From Myxococcales bacterium (GTDB taxonomy: Bacteria > Myxococcota > B64-G9), in NCBI GenBank assembly GCA_027031935.1, contig JALVPF010000093.1:1-47631 (forward strand): 47,631 nucleotides of DNA. The letters run 5' to 3'. Every line of letters starts with the position of its first letter. The stretch's first letter is position 1. The notes under the pieces are model-generated. The model saw only the letters and a program-made list of their open reading frames with translations, did not search any database and was not told the origin of the DNA. The position numbers were made by a program, and so were the translations under genes. Positions 1 to 7,705 of this stretch are shown piece after piece.

Positions 1-713
1 GATTCGACGGCCCCTACCAGAAGTTCTGCCATGATTCCAACACCTGCCGTTGAAACCACAAGCCAAATCAAGGCTTTTTTCACAGACCAGTGTTCGGAAT
101 GATCCACGTCCTTTTCGTCCACCACTCCGTAGAGGTGCTTATGGGTGACGAGCGAAAAGACCAGACTTAGACCATAGGCTGCAAAAAGAACCAGTGCTAT
201 GGCCAGGCTAAGCTCATGCTCGGTTTCGACACCGCTTCTGATGCCATGCTCGAGCATGTGAAAAACAGCAGGGACCACAAGTCCCACCATGGAGAGCAAC
301 ATCAGGCTTGCGCCCAGCCCTGCCGCCATTCGATTGAATTTTTGGGTCGACTGCTTCAAGCCTCCAGCAAGGATGGCCATGCCCAAAACCAGAAGACTAT
401 TGCCAACTATTGATCCAGTGACAGATGCGAGCACCATGTCGTGGAGACCTCGCTGTAAAGCCAAAATACCGATGATCAGCTCAGCAGCGTTTCCAAAAGT
501 TGCGTTGAGCAGCCCCCCTGCTCCAGGCCCCAGTCTTGCAGCAAGGTGCTCTGTAGCCTCTCCCATCCAACCTGCCATGGGTATTATGGAAAGAGCCGAA
601 GTGACAAAAATCCACACGGACTCATCCGGCATGACAAACCTCAACACCAGCGCCACCGGAAAGAACACAGCCATGAAGCTCAGAGGGTGGATCTGCAAGG
701 AACCTAATCGCAT
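1..713 (-). CDS. Ca2+/H+ (cation/proton) exchanger, CaCA/CAX (ChaA-like) family; C-terminus lies beyond the window edge
   Basis: Absent from the ORF track because it runs off the window. My own minus-strand translation from the ATG at 713 gives MRLGSLQIHPLSFMAVFFPVALVLRF...GEATEHLAARLGPGAGGLLNATFGNAAELIIGILALQRG...SVTGSIVGNSLLVLGMAILAGG... It is a polytopic membrane protein with the GNAAE alpha-repeat signature of CAX/ChaA exchangers. Confidence 0.75.
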   Translation of the reverse strand, partial: MRLGSLQIHPLSFMAVFFPVALVLRFVMPDESVWIFVTSALSIIPMAGWMGEATEHLAARLGPGAGGLLNATFGNAAELIIGILALQRGLHDMVLASVTGSIVGNSLLVLGMAILAGGLKQSTQKFNRMAAGLGASLMLLSMVGLVVPAVFHMLEHGIRSGVETEHELSLAIALVLFAAYGLSLVFSLVTHKHLYGVVDEKDVDHSEHWSVKKALIWLVVSTAGVGIMAELLVGAVE

Positions 714-749: not shown

Positions 750-2141
750 CTACTCCTCCGATTCAACCACCACATCTCTGGCTTCACCCTCTCCTCCAGG
801 TTTTCCATCAGCGCCCAGAGAGCGTAGTGTATATGCGTTTTTACCCTTGGGCTCATAGATCAGGGAATTTCCATATGAGTCCTTTGGGAGCTCCTTCAAC
901 ATGCCCTTTTTCACCAAGACCCCCAGGCCTTCCTTGGCATCTGGATATCTCATGTAGTCCAGTCTGTACATATCCAAGGCTGTCTGCACATCAGCCAAGG
1001 CCATCTGTGTCTGACTCACTCTGGATTTTCTTGCATAGCCTACAAATGCCGGTATGGCAATGGCCGAGCCTATACCCAAGACGAAAGAAGCGCCAATGGT
1101 CATTTGACGCGATCCGCTTATCTCCACCGTGTTTGCCCTGTGCACCACCGCAGGTTTGTTGGTGACAGGTGGAAAAATCTCGTCCATGGTCTTGCTCACC
1201 GCCTTCTGATTCTTGAGCGCCTCTTTGGCGGCAAGAGGCATTTCCGGCATCTTGTCCAGGTCAAATCCCAACAAGAACTTGCCGTAAGCCCTGTACATGT
1301 GCGAGCCGCCTAGCATGAACTCCCTCATGCCCTTTAGAAAATACTCTCCCCTCTGTGCGCCTTTTGCATCGTCGAAATCCAGAGAAAGACTAAAGCCCTC
1401 ACCGGCCCTGAGACGGACCCTCGAAAGAGATCCAAGAAGCGTGGATACAGCCCGCAAATCGGGTTCGACTGCAATTTCTTTCAAAAACTTCCCGAAGGCA
1501 ACATCCATCTTCATAATCTCGTCACCAGCGAGGCCAGAACCGAGGTACGGATGAGCCTTCAGTATGCTTTCTGCCCCGTGTTTGTTCTTGAGTACGGCGG
1601 GCATTGATGCAGGGTCTGCAAAAACCAGCAAATCATCCAAAAGGCTTATCATCACCGGCCCGTCGTCATCATCGTTGTCCAGATACACCTCATGACCCTC
1701 CATGATCTGAGGCTGTGCTCCATCGGCGATCATGGATGGTAGTTGTTTGGCAAATTTCCCCTGCACCACCGCAACCAGGCCAGGTTCACCCTGATTTGCG
1801 AAGCGGATTCCTATGGCCATGAGATGAAGATCCTTAAAAATATCCACCGAGTATTGTTGCTGAATTTTTTTCAGCTCATCGTCTAATTGCCCAAACTGTT
1901 TTTCCAGTTCAGCCTTGGCCGCAGGAGTTGAAGCCACGGCAGGAGTTTGCATCATCCAATTTCTGACCTTTTGGTAGTCAGCGGAGACCTTGTCCAAATC
2001 AACGATTACAACCATATTGCTCTCAGGCTCGAGTACTGACAACAGTCTGGCAAATTTTCCACCATCATCCGCTCCAGCCCTTGCCGGAGAGCAAAGACAC
2101 AAAGCGAGTATTGCAATGCTTACGAATCTCCCAGTCATCAC
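750..2141 (-). CDS. Secreted protein: N-terminal ~330-aa domain of unknown function, then an internal pilin-like hydrophobic helix and a C-terminal GspG-like (T2SS major pseudopilin) domain
   Basis: 463-aa ORF with signal peptide MMTGRFVSIAILALCLCSPARA. The C-terminal 120 aa (GIGSAIAIPAFVGYARKSRVSQTQMALADVQTALDMYRLDYMRYPDAKEGLGVLV...LPKDSYGNSLIYEPKGKNAYTLRSLGADGKPGGEGEARDV) align by eye with GspG/EpsG. It is a paralogue of the upstream ORF. Confidence 0.8.
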   Translation of the reverse strand: MMTGRFVSIAILALCLCSPARAGADDGGKFARLLSVLEPESNMVVIVDLDKVSADYQKVRNWMMQTPAVASTPAAKAELEKQFGQLDDELKKIQQQYSVDIFKDLHLMAIGIRFANQGEPGLVAVVQGKFAKQLPSMIADGAQPQIMEGHEVYLDNDDDDGPVMISLLDDLLVFADPASMPAVLKNKHGAESILKAHPYLGSGLAGDEIMKMDVAFGKFLKEIAVEPDLRAVSTLLGSLSRVRLRAGEGFSLSLDFDDAKGAQRGEYFLKGMREFMLGGSHMYRAYGKFLLGFDLDKMPEMPLAAKEALKNQKAVSKTMDEIFPPVTNKPAVVHRANTVEISGSRQMTIGASFVLGIGSAIAIPAFVGYARKSRVSQTQMALADVQTALDMYRLDYMRYPDAKEGLGVLVKKGMLKELPKDSYGNSLIYEPKGKNAYTLRSLGADGKPGGEGEARDVVVESEE

Positions 2142-3406
2142 CTGGCCTCCTTCTTTTTTGCTGCACCCTTGCTGTCGTCCATGCGAAGAGTCCCGTCAGG
2201 ATTCACCTTTGGTGCCGAGTCCATTTTCATCAGGGCCTCATTCTGCTTCTTTTGTTCCAACTCCATCTCCGCCCTCTCGTTCTTCACTGCCTGCTGGTAC
2301 TTGATAAAACTTGGCACAGCCACAGAAGCCAGTATTCCGATTATGGACAAAGAGCCTTTGAGCATTCCCAGATCAGCCAGGAGTGTTACCTTTTTTCCAT
2401 CCACTTCCACTCTTGGAGCTTTTTGCGATTCTGGAAACAAAAAGTCCAAGCTTTGCTCCTGGGCTTTCCTGTCAGCCAATGCCGTCCTTATCTCTGGAGG
2501 CAGACCATCCAACAGGTCCAAATCCAGGGCCATGCTCATGAAAGTGATACCCCTTATCAGTTGCCGACCACCCATCATCATCTCTGCCTCTGCCTGAAGC
2601 AGGTTCTTGACATGGTCTGCACCATTATCGTCTGCACACACAAGTGACACCTCAACCTGGTCAGCTACGTCTACAAACAGTTGCCGTACGGAAAAAAGAC
2701 TCTCTACCATCATCAAATCCGGTGCCTGGTCCATTTCCTGTTTTGCCCATATCACGATCCATGGGGCCATGAAAAAGGACATGCGCAAATAGGATTTGGT
2801 GGCATCATCCCTGAAAAGTTCCGGATGGTGTTTGAGCAAAGTCTCAGAAACATCACCGCCCTTGAGCCTCTTTTCGGTCATGTCCCCGCTGCAGGCCACG
2901 AGAGTCTTGCCCCCCTCTATGGCCACCTGAAAGCCTGACTCGGGAATGGTCCAGACATCGGTTCCAAACTTTTTCTCGGGATTGACGCCCGGAAGGACTT
3001 TCTGAAAAACACCAGGTGGAATTTTTCCATCGATCACAGCCACCACGCTTGGAACCTCACCATTTTGCTTCAGATGGATTCCGATGGCCATGCGGTGGAA
3101 ATCCTTCAAGACATCGAATCCCAACATTCCCCTGGCAAGGGCAAGGCTGGAATCCAGAATGTTCAACTGCTGCTCTATCATTCGCTTGAGTTCAGGGTGC
3201 GCCGCCACGATGGGCACGGTCGTAACTGTCTTGCGCAGCTTGTCGAAGCCCCTGCTCAAGGACGCCAGGTCCACGATAAATACAACATCCGATTCCGCAT
3301 CCAGCCTGGAGACCAGTGGAACATAGGGCCCCTTTGGTGCCTTACTGCTTCCACATCCATAAACGAGCAGGCAGACTCCGATGAAAGATATTAGAGCGCG
3401 TCTCAT
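2138..3406 (-). CDS. Probable lipoprotein, paralogue of 750..2141, with a pilin-like hydrophobic helix near the C-terminus and a charged Lys/Glu-rich tail
   Basis: 422-aa ORF with lipobox-like LLVYGCGSS. It shares blocks with the downstream ORF (VFIVDLASLS/VVIVDLDKVS; DVLKDFHRMAIGI/DIFKDLHLMAIGI). The segment KGSLSIIGILASVAVPSFIKYQQA resembles a type IV pilin N-terminal helix. A 4-nt ATGA overlap with the next gene (2138..2141) is present. Confidence 0.75.
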   Translation of the reverse strand: MRRALISFIGVCLLVYGCGSSKAPKGPYVPLVSRLDAESDVVFIVDLASLSRGFDKLRKTVTTVPIVAAHPELKRMIEQQLNILDSSLALARGMLGFDVLKDFHRMAIGIHLKQNGEVPSVVAVIDGKIPPGVFQKVLPGVNPEKKFGTDVWTIPESGFQVAIEGGKTLVACSGDMTEKRLKGGDVSETLLKHHPELFRDDATKSYLRMSFFMAPWIVIWAKQEMDQAPDLMMVESLFSVRQLFVDVADQVEVSLVCADDNGADHVKNLLQAEAEMMMGGRQLIRGITFMSMALDLDLLDGLPPEIRTALADRKAQEQSLDFLFPESQKAPRVEVDGKKVTLLADLGMLKGSLSIIGILASVAVPSFIKYQQAVKNERAEMELEQKKQNEALMKMDSAPKVNPDGTLRMDDSKGAAKKKEAR

Positions 3407-3599: not shown

Positions 3600-5297
3600 A
3601 TGACCATTTCAGAACAAAGACCTTGGCTTGACAATTGGCCAGAGAACGTCCCCAAACATCTCGATTACCCGGACAAGTCCCTGGGTGAAATTTTCGACGA
3701 CACATGTTCTCAATACTCGGACAGGCCTGCTGTCATTTTTCCATACAACCAGAAAATGGACTCCACCATAAGCTACGCTCAACTAAAGGCATGGGTGGAT
3801 TCGTTTGCTACTTCCCTGTCCCAGTTGGGAGTAAAAAAGGGAGACGTTGTAGGCATCAGGCTTCCCAATACCATTCACTATGTCATCGCCTATTTTGCAG
3901 CCATGAAACTCGGAGCCATAGTCACGGCCAACAACCCCCTGTACAAGGCGGCTGAGGTGGAACACCAGTTCAACGACTCAGGAGCCAAGGTCCTCGTGGT
4001 AATGGATATCGTATACGAAGAAGCAGCAAGGGCCCTTCCCAAAACAAAGATCGAAAAGGTCATCGGCTGCAATATCGCCGACTTCATGCCAGGCTTGAAA
4101 CGTTTCCTCGGCAAGCTCCTGGGCAAGATTCCACAGGCTCCCATGAGCGCGGATGTTCTACGGTTTACCGATCTCCTCCACACGAAGCCATCCCTGCCCA
4201 AGGTGGAGTTGAACCCCAGAGAGGATCTGGCGGTGCTCCAATACACGGGCGGAACCACGGGTCGCCCAAAGGGTGCCATGCTCACCCACTACAACCTGGT
4301 CTGCAACGCATACCAGACAAAGGCATGGGAGTGGAAGAACCGACCGGGTGAGGACCTCATATGCGGGGTGCTGCCATTGTTCCACATCTACGCCATGACT
4401 ACGGTGATGAACCTTGCCGTGATTTCCGGAAGCTCCATGCTGCTTTTCCCCAAACCCCCTGAAGACTGGGCGGTGTTGCTGGCTGCCATAGAGAAGTACA
4501 AAGTGAATCTTTTTCCAGGTGTGGCCGCTTTGTACAACGCCATAAACAATCATCCAAAGGTCAAGGAATACGATCTGTCTTCCATCAGGGCATGTCTGTC
4601 AGGAGCAGGTCCCTTACCGGAACAGATACAGACCAGGTTCGAAGAACTCTCCGGCGCGAGGCTCATCGAAGGTTATGGTCTGACCGAAGCTTCTCCGGTC
4701 ACCCATGCAAATCCTCTCTACGGTCGCAGAAAAATCGGCTCCATTGGTCTGCCCTTTCCGGACACGGAAGCAAAGATCATGGACAAGGACACGGGTGAAA
4801 AGGAATTGGAGCCCGGCCGAATAGGAGAACTGGTTGTCAAAGGTCCGCAGGTGATGAAAGGTTATTACAACACGGACGAAAACTCTGATGTGCTGAGAGA
4901 TGGGTGGCTGTATACAGGCGATCTGGGAACAGTGGATGAGGAGGGGTACTTCAAGATCGTGGATCGCAAGAAAGACATGATAAAACGCAGCGGATATTCG
5001 GTATTTCCGGCAGAAGTGGAAGAATATCTCTATCAAAACGAACACGTGCTCGAATGTGCTGTCATCGGGATTCCGGACAAGAAATCCGGCGAGGAGATAA
5101 AAGCCTTCATAGCCCTCAAACCTGAATCTGTAGGCAAGGTCAGTGAGCAGGATATCATACAGTGGGCCAAGGACAACATGGCAGCATACAAATACCCGCG
5201 GCTGGTGGAATTCAGAGAAGAAATTCCCAAAGGCACAGCAGGAAAAATACTGCGCCGAGAACTCAAGGAAGAGGAGTTGGAAAAGAAAAAATCATGA
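3600..5297 (+). CDS. fadD: Long-chain fatty-acid--CoA ligase (AMP-dependent synthetase/ligase, FadD-like)
   Basis: AMP-binding motifs are present: LQYTGGTTGRPKGAMLTHYN, GYGLTEASP, YTGDLG, DRKKDMIKRSGYSVFP. The start was moved from the ORF-track 3381 to the ATG at 3600 (MTISEQRPWLDNWPE) for two reasons: a GGGAGGG lies 8-14 nt upstream, and 3381 would overlap the divergent gene that starts at 3406. Confidence 0.9.
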   Translation: MTISEQRPWLDNWPENVPKHLDYPDKSLGEIFDDTCSQYSDRPAVIFPYNQKMDSTISYAQLKAWVDSFATSLSQLGVKKGDVVGIRLPNTIHYVIAYFAAMKLGAIVTANNPLYKAAEVEHQFNDSGAKVLVVMDIVYEEAARALPKTKIEKVIGCNIADFMPGLKRFLGKLLGKIPQAPMSADVLRFTDLLHTKPSLPKVELNPREDLAVLQYTGGTTGRPKGAMLTHYNLVCNAYQTKAWEWKNRPGEDLICGVLPLFHIYAMTTVMNLAVISGSSMLLFPKPPEDWAVLLAAIEKYKVNLFPGVAALYNAINNHPKVKEYDLSSIRACLSGAGPLPEQIQTRFEELSGARLIEGYGLTEASPVTHANPLYGRRKIGSIGLPFPDTEAKIMDKDTGEKELEPGRIGELVVKGPQVMKGYYNTDENSDVLRDGWLYTGDLGTVDEEGYFKIVDRKKDMIKRSGYSVFPAEVEEYLYQNEHVLECAVIGIPDKKSGEEIKAFIALKPESVGKVSEQDIIQWAKDNMAAYKYPRLVEFREEIPKGTAGKILRRELKEEELEKKKS

Positions 5298-7705
5298 CCT
5301 TCAAAATCCCAGAAATTCATCCCGGAATATTTCCAATATTTGTTCTGTTTTTTTCCACCACTCTCATGGCACAGGATATCTCGGAAACAAAAAAGATATC
5401 CATTCTTTTCACTACAGATCTCTATGGATTGTTCAGCCCGGTAAAATGTGATGCTCCACCACAAACCGACTTTGCCAACCTGGTGGGAACCATAAAAAAG
5501 ATACGCGAAGAAAACAAAAGACAAGGGCTGAGTGAGCCGCTCGTACTCAACGGTGGCGACAACATCGGTCCCAGGGCCTTTGCCAGGTTCGTACTCATAC
5601 AAGGTCAATCTGGTGGCGAGGCCATGGCCAGATGGCTCAAGGCTGCAGGCTATGGACTAATCGCTTTGGGCAACCAGGATTTTTATGCCGTTGCCCAACG
5701 ACTGGCTGCGTACCTCAAGGGAGGAAAGGATCTCGGCCTGGATTTCTCAGCAGCCAACCTGGACTGCAAGACCAAAAAAGGCATCTGCAAGTATATTGGA
5801 GCTGGTCCGGGTCGGTTCAAGATGTTCCAACGCGATGGATTGAACATTGCGGTACTGAGCGTTATACACGCTGACCTGGCAAAGCTGGTCGGGCCCGGAA
5901 GGCTCGACAACATACAGGTCGAAGACCCGGCACAAAGAGCGAAAGAGGTTATTGAGGCAGCACGCCAGGCAGGGGCTGACCTGGTGATCGTCATCTCTCA
6001 TACGGAACACGCAGAGACATCTCCACGTACCACCATTGCCTTGGCAAGGGCCATTCCAGACGCTGATCTTGTGATCGCAAACGCCTTTACCGTGAACAAG
6101 GATGATAGAGGTATCGGTGTAATCAGGTTTTCCGATGGTGCGTCACCCATTATCGGATGCGATCTCATGGGTGAACACCTCTGCCTGGCGCAACTCGAAG
6201 CAAAAAAGACCGGGGGCAGGTGGCGAGTGTCGAATCTGTCCAACCAGGAGCTGAATCCTTCGTCAGCAAAACCGGACGAACAGGTACGCAAAGAAATTGA
6301 AGAATACCTGAAAGACTACTGCTCAAAGTGGGATAAGCCTGTGGGCAAGGGGAAGCTGGCCCGGGCGATGAACCCGGACGATTTCCGAAGATACATAATG
6401 GAGATCATGCGTGCATCGAGCAAAAGCGAACTTGCATTCATAAACCGGGGCCTGGTGGATGAATCGGTCGTCTTCCCCATGAAAGGGCACATCACGAGAC
6501 ACGATTTTTTTGCAGGTCTTCCCCACAGAAACAAGCTCTACACCTTTGGGCTGAAAGGCAAGCAGGTAAATGCACTGTGTAAAAAACTGCTCAAGGAAAA
6601 ACAAGTAAGCGGCAAGACCAGGCTCGAACATCTTGGTCTGTCCTGTGGGAAGAAAAACAGGGTAAACGGCAGACTCATCGATCCCAACGATACCTATACG
6701 GCAATAACCATTGAATACCTGGCGGCTGGAGTCCTCGGATACTTCGATCCGAAAAAAATCCACATGAAGCCCTTCATGCAGCAAGGATTCGATCATCAAC
6801 CCATACTTGGTCAGGTGGCGAGAAAATTTCTCTCCAGCCCCAGGTTCCAAGGCGACAACCCGGAGCTCATCGACCCTGATCAAAACTTCTCCGATCTGTC
6901 ACGTACGCTGAGATGGACCTTCTTCGGTGGACTCAACCTGAACCTGTCAGACACTGCCATATACAACGATCGTGCATATGATCAATCGCAACTTGCCAGG
7001 GACGAGTTCATGGCCCTGAAAGGAGAAATAAGGGCCAGGATTGAGGCAAACTCCAGAATTCACGGCCTGTCCATAGATGCAAGGCTGAAATATGCAAAAT
7101 CGTCCACAGCTGACGGACCCTGGATAGAGAGTGAAGACCTGACCACAGTCAACGCGGTATACAAGCTCAAGTCTTTCAGGGATGCCAACTCTGGCTGGTA
7201 CGTTCCCATGCCCTACCTGGAATCCAAGCTGGAGACGGAACTGACCAAGCCCCAGGACGATCCTGCAACAACGGAGATTGATGAAGGTCGCTCATACCAC
7301 CACCTGGAAGTAACCGCCACCTTGGGCACCAGGTTCAAGCTGCTGCAGACCCTGGAGGCAAAAGCAGGATTCGGTCTCAGGGACGAGACATTAGACCCCG
7401 ACGCAAAGCCGGTATATGGATTCGACATAGGCTACCTGCTGAAGAAAACGAACCTGCTGAGCTTGCTGGGAAGTCCTCTTCAGATGGAATCGCAACTCAC
7501 GGCATTCTTCGGAGACCTGGGCCGTACCAACACCCTGAAGGGGACCTGGACAAATCGCTTGTATTTTTCCATCATCGGGCCCATATACTTCAATATCACC
7601 CACGAATTGTTCGTTTACAGATACTCCACGTGGGATTACGGAATTGCTTCGGATTTCACATTCGGCCTGAGCTATAACGCTCAGACTTCGTTGCAGGCAT
7701 TTTGA
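5294..7705 (+). CDS. Secreted 5'-nucleotidase/metallophosphoesterase-like protein with degenerate metal-binding motifs, fused to a C-terminal putative outer-membrane beta-barrel
   Basis: Start is at the ATG at 5294 (MTFKIPEIHPGIFPIFVLFFSTTLMA|QD signal peptide), in an ATGA overlap with the fadD stop. The N-terminal ~540 aa have UshA/CpdB-like order (LFTTDLYG, NGGDNIGP, GNQDFY, VISHTEH, then a 5'-nucleotidase C-terminal-like AFINRG...TIEYLAAGVLGY). The last ~260 aa have alternating beta-strand patterns and end in ...SLQAF, with the terminal Phe of an OMP beta-signal. Confidence 0.75.
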   Translation: MTFKIPEIHPGIFPIFVLFFSTTLMAQDISETKKISILFTTDLYGLFSPVKCDAPPQTDFANLVGTIKKIREENKRQGLSEPLVLNGGDNIGPRAFARFVLIQGQSGGEAMARWLKAAGYGLIALGNQDFYAVAQRLAAYLKGGKDLGLDFSAANLDCKTKKGICKYIGAGPGRFKMFQRDGLNIAVLSVIHADLAKLVGPGRLDNIQVEDPAQRAKEVIEAARQAGADLVIVISHTEHAETSPRTTIALARAIPDADLVIANAFTVNKDDRGIGVIRFSDGASPIIGCDLMGEHLCLAQLEAKKTGGRWRVSNLSNQELNPSSAKPDEQVRKEIEEYLKDYCSKWDKPVGKGKLARAMNPDDFRRYIMEIMRASSKSELAFINRGLVDESVVFPMKGHITRHDFFAGLPHRNKLYTFGLKGKQVNALCKKLLKEKQVSGKTRLEHLGLSCGKKNRVNGRLIDPNDTYTAITIEYLAAGVLGYFDPKKIHMKPFMQQGFDHQPILGQVARKFLSSPRFQGDNPELIDPDQNFSDLSRTLRWTFFGGLNLNLSDTAIYNDRAYDQSQLARDEFMALKGEIRARIEANSRIHGLSIDARLKYAKSSTADGPWIESEDLTTVNAVYKLKSFRDANSGWYVPMPYLESKLETELTKPQDDPATTEIDEGRSYHHLEVTATLGTRFKLLQTLEAKAGFGLRDETLDPDAKPVYGFDIGYLLKKTNLLSLLGSPLQMESQLTAFFGDLGRTNTLKGTWTNRLYFSIIGPIYFNITHELFVYRYSTWDYGIASDFTFGLSYNAQTSLQAF

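Follow-up and report, generated by a model that had tools for sequence, protein, structure and literature searches.

A tandem gene pair of a Myxococcales bacterium predicted to encode exported TP0453/DUF3352-fold proteins with a truncated pilin helix and, in one case, a GspG head

Introduction

To our knowledge, all known pilins and pseudopilins depend on an N-terminal class III signal peptide for membrane entry, processing and polymerisation. Here we analyse a gene pair at positions 750 to 3,406 of contig JALVPF010000093.1 (positions 1 to 47,631; assembly GCA_027031935.1) from a Myxococcales bacterium (GTDB lineage Bacteria; Myxococcota; B64-G9), in which a pilin-like helix is found about 340 residues behind the start of two exported proteins. 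The window is this whole stretch of 47,631 nt and all coordinates refer to it. The defining feature of type 4 pilins is such a class III signal peptide at the N-terminus, i.e., a short hydrophilic leader with Gly or Ala at its end and, behind it, a stretch of 20-25 hydrophobic residues, in many cases with a Glu5 (PMC10191384). The leader is cytoplasmic, where it is cut by the prepilin peptidase (PMC10191384). For the major pseudopilins, the role of a calcium loop has been described in addition (PMC13081927).

The domain that precedes the helix resembles TP0453 of Treponema pallidum and the DUF3352 proteins. TP0453 is an outer-membrane-associated lipoprotein, whose amphipathic helices are inserted into membranes; for the domain described here this is an analogy only. 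In the literature no paper mentioning DUF3352 was found, and one paper involving TP0453 employs it as negative control only. Likewise, no paper was found on the architecture described below, and nothing relevant on DUF1559 together with a pilin or on a pilin domain together with a lipoprotein. This agrees with the initial annotation of this DNA, which was made from the sequence alone and knew of no described family with this layout.

Results

Domain architecture of the two proteins

It is very likely that the two genes encode exported paralogues of TP0453/DUF3352 fold that both end in a truncated pilin alpha1 helix, one of them with a GspG head behind it. Gene A (2138..3406; minus strand, as all features of the pair) is an open reading frame (ORF) for P0002, a putative lipoprotein paralogue of 422 aa, in which the N-terminal domain (N-domain) is followed by a pilin-like stalk and a charged tail. 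Gene B (750..2141) is the ORF for P0001, the Sec-exported paralogue with N-domain, pilin stalk and GspG head, which has 463 aa (462 aa if translation begins with the ATG at 2138). Both ORFs had been reported with these lengths and positions in the initial annotation, and all peptide strings quoted there were found.

Signal peptides and lipobox were assigned by inspection of the sequence, and the earlier claim of a signal peptide at the start of each protein could be upheld on this basis. The signal peptide of P0001 (residues 1-22; 2076..2141; modelled with a predicted local distance difference test score (pLDDT) below 50) appears to be of the signal peptidase I (SPI) type, with a site between A-R-A and G, which reads V-Q-A and G in the orthologues. 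P0002 appears to start with a signal peptide (3353..3406) with the lipobox-like L-V-Y-G-C18, and a similar L-L-Y-G-C is kept in its orthologue P0006.

The stalk of P0001 covers residues 345-370 (1032..1109) and contains the invariant residues G350 (1092-1094), G356 and P364, as read from the model and the invariant columns. In P0002 the pilin alpha1-like hydrophobic stalk covers residues 346-368 (2303..2371) and was recognised by a Kyte-Doolittle 19-residue mean of 1.85-2.07, by a PilA_Myxo match and by the spacing of Gly and Pro. The mean is about 2.0 at residues 349-367 of P0001 and 346-364 of P0002, and each protein has this one further strongly hydrophobic segment only. The initial annotation had compared this internal segment with the N-terminal helix of pilins, and the resemblance turned out to be a significant homology. 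The family tails match residues 11-61 of Myxococcus xanthus PilA (8tj2) with an E value of 5e-7, the NCBIfam PilA and GspG models match them from about profile position 12-24 on, and the cut-out tail of P0002 matches positions 22-52 of the NCBIfam model PilA_Myxo (E 8e-5). Furthermore, the spacing G356..P364 of P0001 equals G14..P22 of pilins, and the same holds for the G...P spacing of P0002. The homology thus starts at about mature residue 10-11, and the equivalent of positions 1-9, with Phe1 and Glu5, is absent. No Asp or Glu is found in residues 346-369 of P0001 or 351-368 of P0002, and neither protein gives a PF07963 N_methyl match at E <= 1, which bears out the earlier remark that Glu+5 is missing in a helix that stands behind a large domain. 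On sequence grounds the stalk is a pilin alpha1 without leader and without the first about nine mature residues, not a complete helix.

The orthologue P0004 (L005 367-1758) has a 5-residue insertion in the stalk, apparently a duplication of the unit G-I-G-x-F, so the length of the stalk is not strictly fixed.

Behind the stalk, residues 367-458 of P0001 (768..1043) form the globular GspG (T2SSG) head, which matches Pfam T2SSG PF08334 with 67.4 bits (cut-off 21; E 1.4e-18) and was found at the same coordinates in the genome search. An AlphaFold2 (AF2) model of P0001 built with 35 family sequences has a mean pLDDT of 89 and a predicted template modelling score (pTM) of 0.83 and contains one continuous helix from residue 345 to 396; PulG of the pseudopilus structure 5wda fits with its residues 4-129 onto residues 327-460 of this model (Z 9.9). 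The modelled head alone superposes on Vibrio cholerae EpsG 4lw9 with Z 12.3, an rmsd of 1.8 Å and 39% identity, and a gap-free alignment of the P0001 tail with the genome's own canonical GspG (134 aa) shows 38% identity. Against the NCBIfam equivalog TIGR01710 the whole P0001 scores 71.4 bits and its tail 76.5 bits, both below the cut-off of 88.85, while the tail of the relative P0009 lies above it with 93.2 bits. The initial annotation had described a domain colinear with GspG at the end of this protein and had named the lack of a significant match in this region as an outcome that would speak against it; profile search and modelling both gave the match.

The head contains the sequence L-G-A-D-G-x-x-G-G-x-G-x-x-x-D (residues 442-456; 774..818), which aligns residue for residue with the calcium-binding loop of XcpT 2kep and EpsG 3gn9. 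D445, G446, G449, G450, G452 and D456 are invariant in all five GspG-type fusions. As judged from these alignments the calcium loop is conserved in P0001, and metal binding is predicted. In P0002 the stalk is followed by a charged C-terminal tail without globular head (residues 369-422; 2141..2302), which has no family match; no Pfam match was obtained over the whole protein.

The N-domain covers residues 24-344 in P0001 (1110..2072), where it was assigned by AF2 model and structural search, and residues 20-345 in P0002 (2372..3349), where the TP0453/DUF3352-like assignment comes from the alignment with the N-domain of P0001 (family profile E 1.3e-152). Modelled alone, the N-domain of P0001 reaches a pLDDT of 94.5. 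In an exhaustive structural search it matched TP0453 (3k8g_A) with Z 12.2 and 198 of 251 residues aligned, the runner-up having Z 6.4. DUF3352 clusters of the AFDB were matched with E values of 1e-11 to 2e-14 and a probability of 1.00, and an ESM Atlas cluster with PF11832 matches the model at a template modelling score of 0.71 by hit. The first half of the domain is also similar to the extracellular domain of PknH, to TiME and to other Mog1/PsbP-like modules. In the Swiss-Prot part of the AFDB the model found uncharacterised proteins only, namely E. coli YfaA and the archaeal MJ0635, MJ1281 and AF_2048 (E 2.5e-8 to 4.6e-5), which suggests that the modelled fold belongs to a very wide, uncharacterised superfamily. 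The gene of YfaA lies within the yfaS alpha-2-macroglobulin operon. In the sequence libraries nothing was found for the N-domain, with no PF20740 or PF11832 match at E <= 1 for P0001 or P0002, and a Foldseek search of the full P0001 model against the PDB returned nothing (best E 0.08). According to the models, the N-domain shares the TP0453/DUF3352 fold. A role of this domain in membrane or lipid interaction would be by analogy only.

Without a class III signal peptide, and with an N-domain that brings its own export signal, P0001 and P0002 should neither be cut by the prepilin peptidase nor be fed normally into a filament from the inner-membrane platform; both steps would be excluded for either protein. 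The helix begins only at about residue 345, after an SPI or lipoprotein signal and a 320-aa domain. This bears on one of two readings offered in the initial annotation, namely that of a pilin with an extremely long pro-region. In such a case about 345 residues would be removed at G350 and the remaining mini-pseudopilin would be assembled into the T2SS (type II secretion system) endopilus or another type 4 filament. Gly350 is indeed invariant in 13/13 aligned family members and stands directly before the stalk, which leaves a small chance of cleavage by some protease; moreover, the head is a bona fide GspG head with its calcium loop, and the genome has a T2SS with a canonical GspG. However, this Gly would face the periplasm, whereas the prepilin peptidase acts at the cytoplasmic face (PMC10191384). 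The residue after it is Ser, Ala, Asn or Gly and not Phe, Met or Leu, there is neither Glu5 nor an N_methyl match, and the hydrophobic stretch that would be left has about 17 residues, with homology from about pilin residue 10 on. The 5-residue insertion in one orthologue fits poorly with the exact packing of a filament, and many family members have no head at all. We therefore consider a giant pro-region very improbable. The other of the two readings, a pilin module recruited as anchor or docking domain, is favoured, as the family keeps the stalk, swaps or loses the heads (see below) and has no class III signal.

Conservation of the gene pair

The same two genes, their overlap and the flanking genes are present in GCA_964431605.1, with proteins 57-65% identical to those described here; in a search for related loci with the narrow family alignment this sister assembly was the only one found. 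P0001 has orthologues of the same architecture in two other assemblies (62% and 57% identity), and the orthologues of P0002 at the loci L003 and L005 are 65% identical. The uninterrupted fusion and its junction with the upstream paralogue are also found on a Logan contig from another run. The synonymous substitution rate (dS) was saturated in most comparisons, and the proportions of non-synonymous (pN) and synonymous (pS) differences are given instead. In the head of P0001 pN is 0.25-0.30 and pS 0.61-0.78, with similar values in N-domain and stalk, and the tail of P0002 has pN 0.33 and pS 0.63 against its orthologue. On these comparisons the pair can be taken as real and under purifying selection.

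An assembly chimera or a frameshift, by which an upstream lipoprotein gene is fused to a normal short pseudopilin gene, had been named beforehand as an alternative, and the source is in fact a fragmented metagenome-assembled genome of 613 contigs. However, the same unbroken architecture recurs with 57-62% identity and conserved synteny in two other independent assemblies, and the same junction is present in about 30 further family representatives. In addition, a normal pseudopilin gene would have contributed its leader and first residues, which are missing from the stalk, and pN is much lower than pS across the junction. With pair, fusion architecture and synteny recurring in three independent assemblies, an artefact of this kind has practically no probability left.

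P0001 and P0002 are 26% identical over 407 columns (BLASTP, E 4e-36), with a shared domain of about 320 aa. The earlier view of tandem paralogues thus stands, as far as sequence comparison can tell. The junction of the two genes (2136..2150) reads differently from what had been annotated. Instead of an ATGA overlap at 2138..2141, the sequence GGAGG (2146-2150) is followed by GTGATG, within which gene A stops and gene B starts. Translation of gene B from the GTG (2141) gives an overlap of GTGA, and translation from the ATG (2138) one of 1 nt (TGATG). The ATG at 2138 is better spaced from GGAGG, and the database protein has 462 aa, which fits the ATG. With either start the two genes are translationally coupled.

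Exchange of heads within the family

In a search of 1.8 billion proteins with a profile of the N-domain, 85 cluster representatives were matched, and for 28 the E value was below 1e-30. The family occurs in 11/17 sampled genomes of the same GTDB family and in 0/23 genomes that represent other families of this phylum. A signal peptide or lipobox is present in every close member, and so is, after the invariant Gly, the stalk motif G-x-L-A-A-[IV]-A-I-P-A-F-I-x-Y (with the core A-[IV]-A-[IV]-P-x-F). Behind it, different tails are found: the GspG head in five representatives, a pilin-like head of about 115 aa with two invariant Cys in at least nine, a head of about 155 aa with 4-5 Cys in three, and a short tail only, as in P0002. 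The two Cys are invariant in 11/11 heads of the sister subfamily. The C-terminus of more distant members is a hydrophobic helix of non-pilin type plus a short tail, which is often basic.

In the N-domain tree a short-tailed clade, which includes P0002 and mostly carries a lipobox, stands apart from a clade with all head-bearing proteins. Within the latter the head types are intermixed, which needs at least 14 changes; the stalk therefore appears as the constant element of these proteins, whereas the heads are modular and have been swapped or lost in evolution. In the tree of the heads, where the row L001 is a GspH-like gene on a very long branch and was disregarded, the five GspG heads group together on a long branch with a support of 96/100, which suggests that this head was captured only once from a pseudopilin gene. 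An upstream lipoprotein gene followed by a downstream gene with a 4-nt overlap is also present in other genera (L009, L011, L013).

Long frames containing T2SSG in other genomes (L024-L026) were considered as further fusions and rejected, as they are ordinary GspG genes in over-extended ORFs. In one relative (L019, contig C25, 11433-17864, minus strand) the upstream paralogue stands at the end of a 2143-codon frame without Pfam match, which could be either a far larger fusion or an ORF that is over-extended in a GC-rich genome. Many of the distant homologues P0044-P0091 start with a conserved, uncharged motif, M-x(1-3)-G-[FL]-x-E-[LVI] followed by L-L-x-L-G-G-F-G-V-x-A-N-P-x-A-P. This start has no basic n-region, resembles neither a Sec nor a lipoprotein signal and shows a faint likeness to a leaderless pilin start.

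Searches by shape found the same domain order outside the phylum, in an ESM Atlas cluster of 209 Planctomycetota proteins with PF07596 (DUF1559) and in a Rifleibacteriota cluster with ComGC_C. In the AFDB, proteins named 'DUF1559 domain-containing' align over N-domain and stalk.

Topology and pairing

For the pair as a whole we propose an exported heterodimer, in which a non-polymerisable pilin module serves as anchor or pairing helix and carries a docking head; the chance that this mechanism is right in all its parts is about even. P0001 and P0002 would pair via the long conserved helix of the N-domain, the hydrophobic stalks would be a membrane-anchoring or mutually shielding element, and the GspG head would remain on the periplasmic side and serve as a docking module, perhaps for components of the T2SS.

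Pairing is supported by complex prediction. For mature P0001 and P0002 an ipSAE (interaction prediction score from aligned errors) of 0.71 was obtained in three concordant runs, with 0.48 for the best control; the mark is reached by 51/78 solved complexes and by 2/108 mismatched pairs. The predicted interface is nearly symmetric and lies on the most conserved block of the family. In P0001 it covers residues 230-326 (1164..1454) with a long helix at 259-291 and the conserved G279, R284 and D294, in P0002 residues 229-313. The model supports binding of P0001 to P0002 without demonstrating it. A heterodimer is favoured over homodimers of the paralogues because the two-gene arrangement is conserved.

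The position of the head depends on what the stalk does during export. A uniformly hydrophobic helix behind an exported domain should act, by the textbook logic of the Sec pathway, as a stop-transfer anchor, and the GspG head would therefore be cytoplasmic. Both proteins would then be type I bitopic inner-membrane proteins with the N-domain in the periplasm, the pilin helix as stop-transfer segment (N-out/C-in), and the head of P0001 and the tail of P0002 in the cytoplasm; the pilin piece would be only a borrowed transmembrane segment, and the head would either be a passenger or mediate interactions in the cytoplasm. The small-xxx-small spacing of the stalk (G350, G356, A360, P364) suits the packing of transmembrane helices. 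However, a cytoplasmic head would need neither an invariant Cys pair nor a conserved calcium loop, and three different complete pilin heads have been kept under purifying selection. The stalk is the less hydrophobic half of the pilin alpha1N. On an additive insertion scale (approximate values) it scores about +2.4 to +3.7 kcal/mol, like the cleavable signals of the proteins themselves and unlike the transmembrane segments of the genome's GspG and GspH (-2.0). In P0002 the presumably lipidated Cys is followed by Gly or Ser, with no obvious signal for inner-membrane retention, which is a weak point against the bitopic topology. A bitopic topology is thus possible but rather doubtful.

A periplasmic head, in turn, is supported by the invariant Cys pair of the sister heads, as expected for a disulfide, by the conserved calcium ligands of the GspG-type heads and by the origin of all heads, which are still under selection, from periplasmic domains. 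We regard this position as moderately probable and a cytoplasmic one as possible though distinctly less so. If the head is periplasmic, the two stalks need shielding by each other, by membranes or by partner proteins.

Several observations weigh against the proposed heterodimer with its periplasmic docking head. The Kyte-Doolittle mean given above belongs to a helix that is not amphipathic and follows an exported domain, the stalk appears in the AF2 model as an exposed rod between two domains (pLDDT 75-78), like a transmembrane segment, and the hydrophobic helix and short tail that close the distant members resemble C-terminal anchors. Counts of Lys and Arg in the flanks of 67 members (3.1 upstream vs 2.4 downstream) do not discriminate between the topologies. 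In the complex model heterodimer and homodimers of the paralogues are indistinguishable by score, and no confident stalk-stalk contacts were seen. As to function, no T2SS or type IV pilus (T4P) genes adjoin the pair or its homologues in four other genomes, and T2SSG is present in 40/41 relatives, with or without the N-domain family. The co-occurrence with T2SS, proposed earlier as a check, could thus be examined, but at this frequency it is uninformative.

Genomic neighbourhood

The pair is flanked by a CaCA antiporter gene on one side and by genes for an acyl-CoA ligase, a 5'-nucleotidase-like protein and apgM on the other. In four other genomes the neighbourhoods of the homologues contain no conserved partner besides the paralogue. 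The antiporter gene (Ca2+/cation antiporter, PF01699; window 3-713, minus strand) lies directly downstream of gene B, and this adjacency is kept in the sister genome; together with the calcium loop in the head of P0001 it may be more than chance. The acyl-CoA ligase gene and an 800-aa gene containing 5'-nucleotidase_C (window 5294-7705 and 3600-5294, both plus strand) are divergent from the pair and syntenic in the sister genome. For the 800-aa gene a weak match to 5_nucleotid_C (E 1.3e-9) is the only one.

The canonical gspF-lspA-gspG-gspH cluster of the same genome lies on another contig (C500), away from the pair. There, lspA (signal peptidase II, PF01252, E 5.5e-32; L001, 1896-2435, minus strand) is located between gspF and gspG, an unusual place for this gene.

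Discussion

The domains of P0001 and P0002 are of known kinds, whereas their architecture is an undescribed reuse of the pilin. New are the tandem arrangement of lipoprotein and head-bearing paralogue and their predicted dimer interface, the point at which alpha1 is truncated together with the invariant Gly, the GspG head, which was apparently captured once and still has its calcium loop, and the swapping of heads within one family. A stalk and a GspG head without signal are under selection, heads have been swapped or lost, and like architectures are found in other phyla. This indicates that the pilin fold leads a second life in the cell envelope, one that is independent of filaments or at least non-canonical. 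A question of topology is raised as well, namely whether a half-length alpha1N stops transfer or not.

What the pair contributes to the cell would depend on the partner of the head. If the head docks on parts of T2SS or T4P, the pair could reveal how length or activity of the endopilus is controlled; if the stalk is only an anchor, it would be a modest curiosity of domain shuffling. One version of docking sees the pair as an accessory factor of the T2SS endopilus. Stalk and GspG head would dock on the pseudopilin bundle and cap, terminate or tether the endopilus, while the bulky N-domain and the missing Glu5 would block extension past the docked protein, and for type IV pili this part would be played by the sister proteins that carry PilA-like heads. 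We consider such a role unlikely. If true, it would mean that decapitated pilins make up a widespread class of filament regulators that has gone unrecognised.

Of the described systems, GspG (PulG, EpsG, XcpT; PF08334, TIGR01710) shares with P0001 the head fold, the sequence and the calcium loop, as well as a long alpha1 helix that runs into the head. In contrast to GspG, P0001 has no class III signal peptide, no Phe1 and no Glu5, and its helix begins about 345 residues into a Sec-exported protein. Its gene stands outside the T2SS operon, and the heads of the fusions form a long separate branch.

With TP0453 (PDB 3k8g, PF20740) and DUF3352 (PF11832) the two proteins share the alpha/beta/alpha fold of the N-domain of about 320 aa. 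Export as lipoprotein or secreted protein would be a further likeness, judging by the lipobox-like motif of P0002 and the SPI-type site that P0001 has instead, both read by eye. The identity is about 10%, without a Pfam match at the sequence level, and TP0453 itself has no pilin module, unlike P0001 and P0002.

In modular type IV pilins such as PilB and PilC of Streptococcus sanguinis, the pilin module likewise has a large additional domain linked to it covalently. However, in modular pilins the extra module follows the pilin, the class III signal is intact and the proteins are polymerised, whereas in P0001 and P0002 the extra domain comes first and replaces the signal. A like layout, with a likeness by shape alone, is seen in the fusions of Planctomycetota and Rifleibacteriota, in which an exported DUF3352-like domain is likewise followed by a pilin-type stalk and head. 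These proteins carry heads of other pilin classes (DUF1559/SBP_bac_10, ComGC, PilA-like) and are usually larger; P0001 and P0002 differ from them by the tandem arrangement of a lipoprotein and a head-bearing paralogue and by the GspG head.

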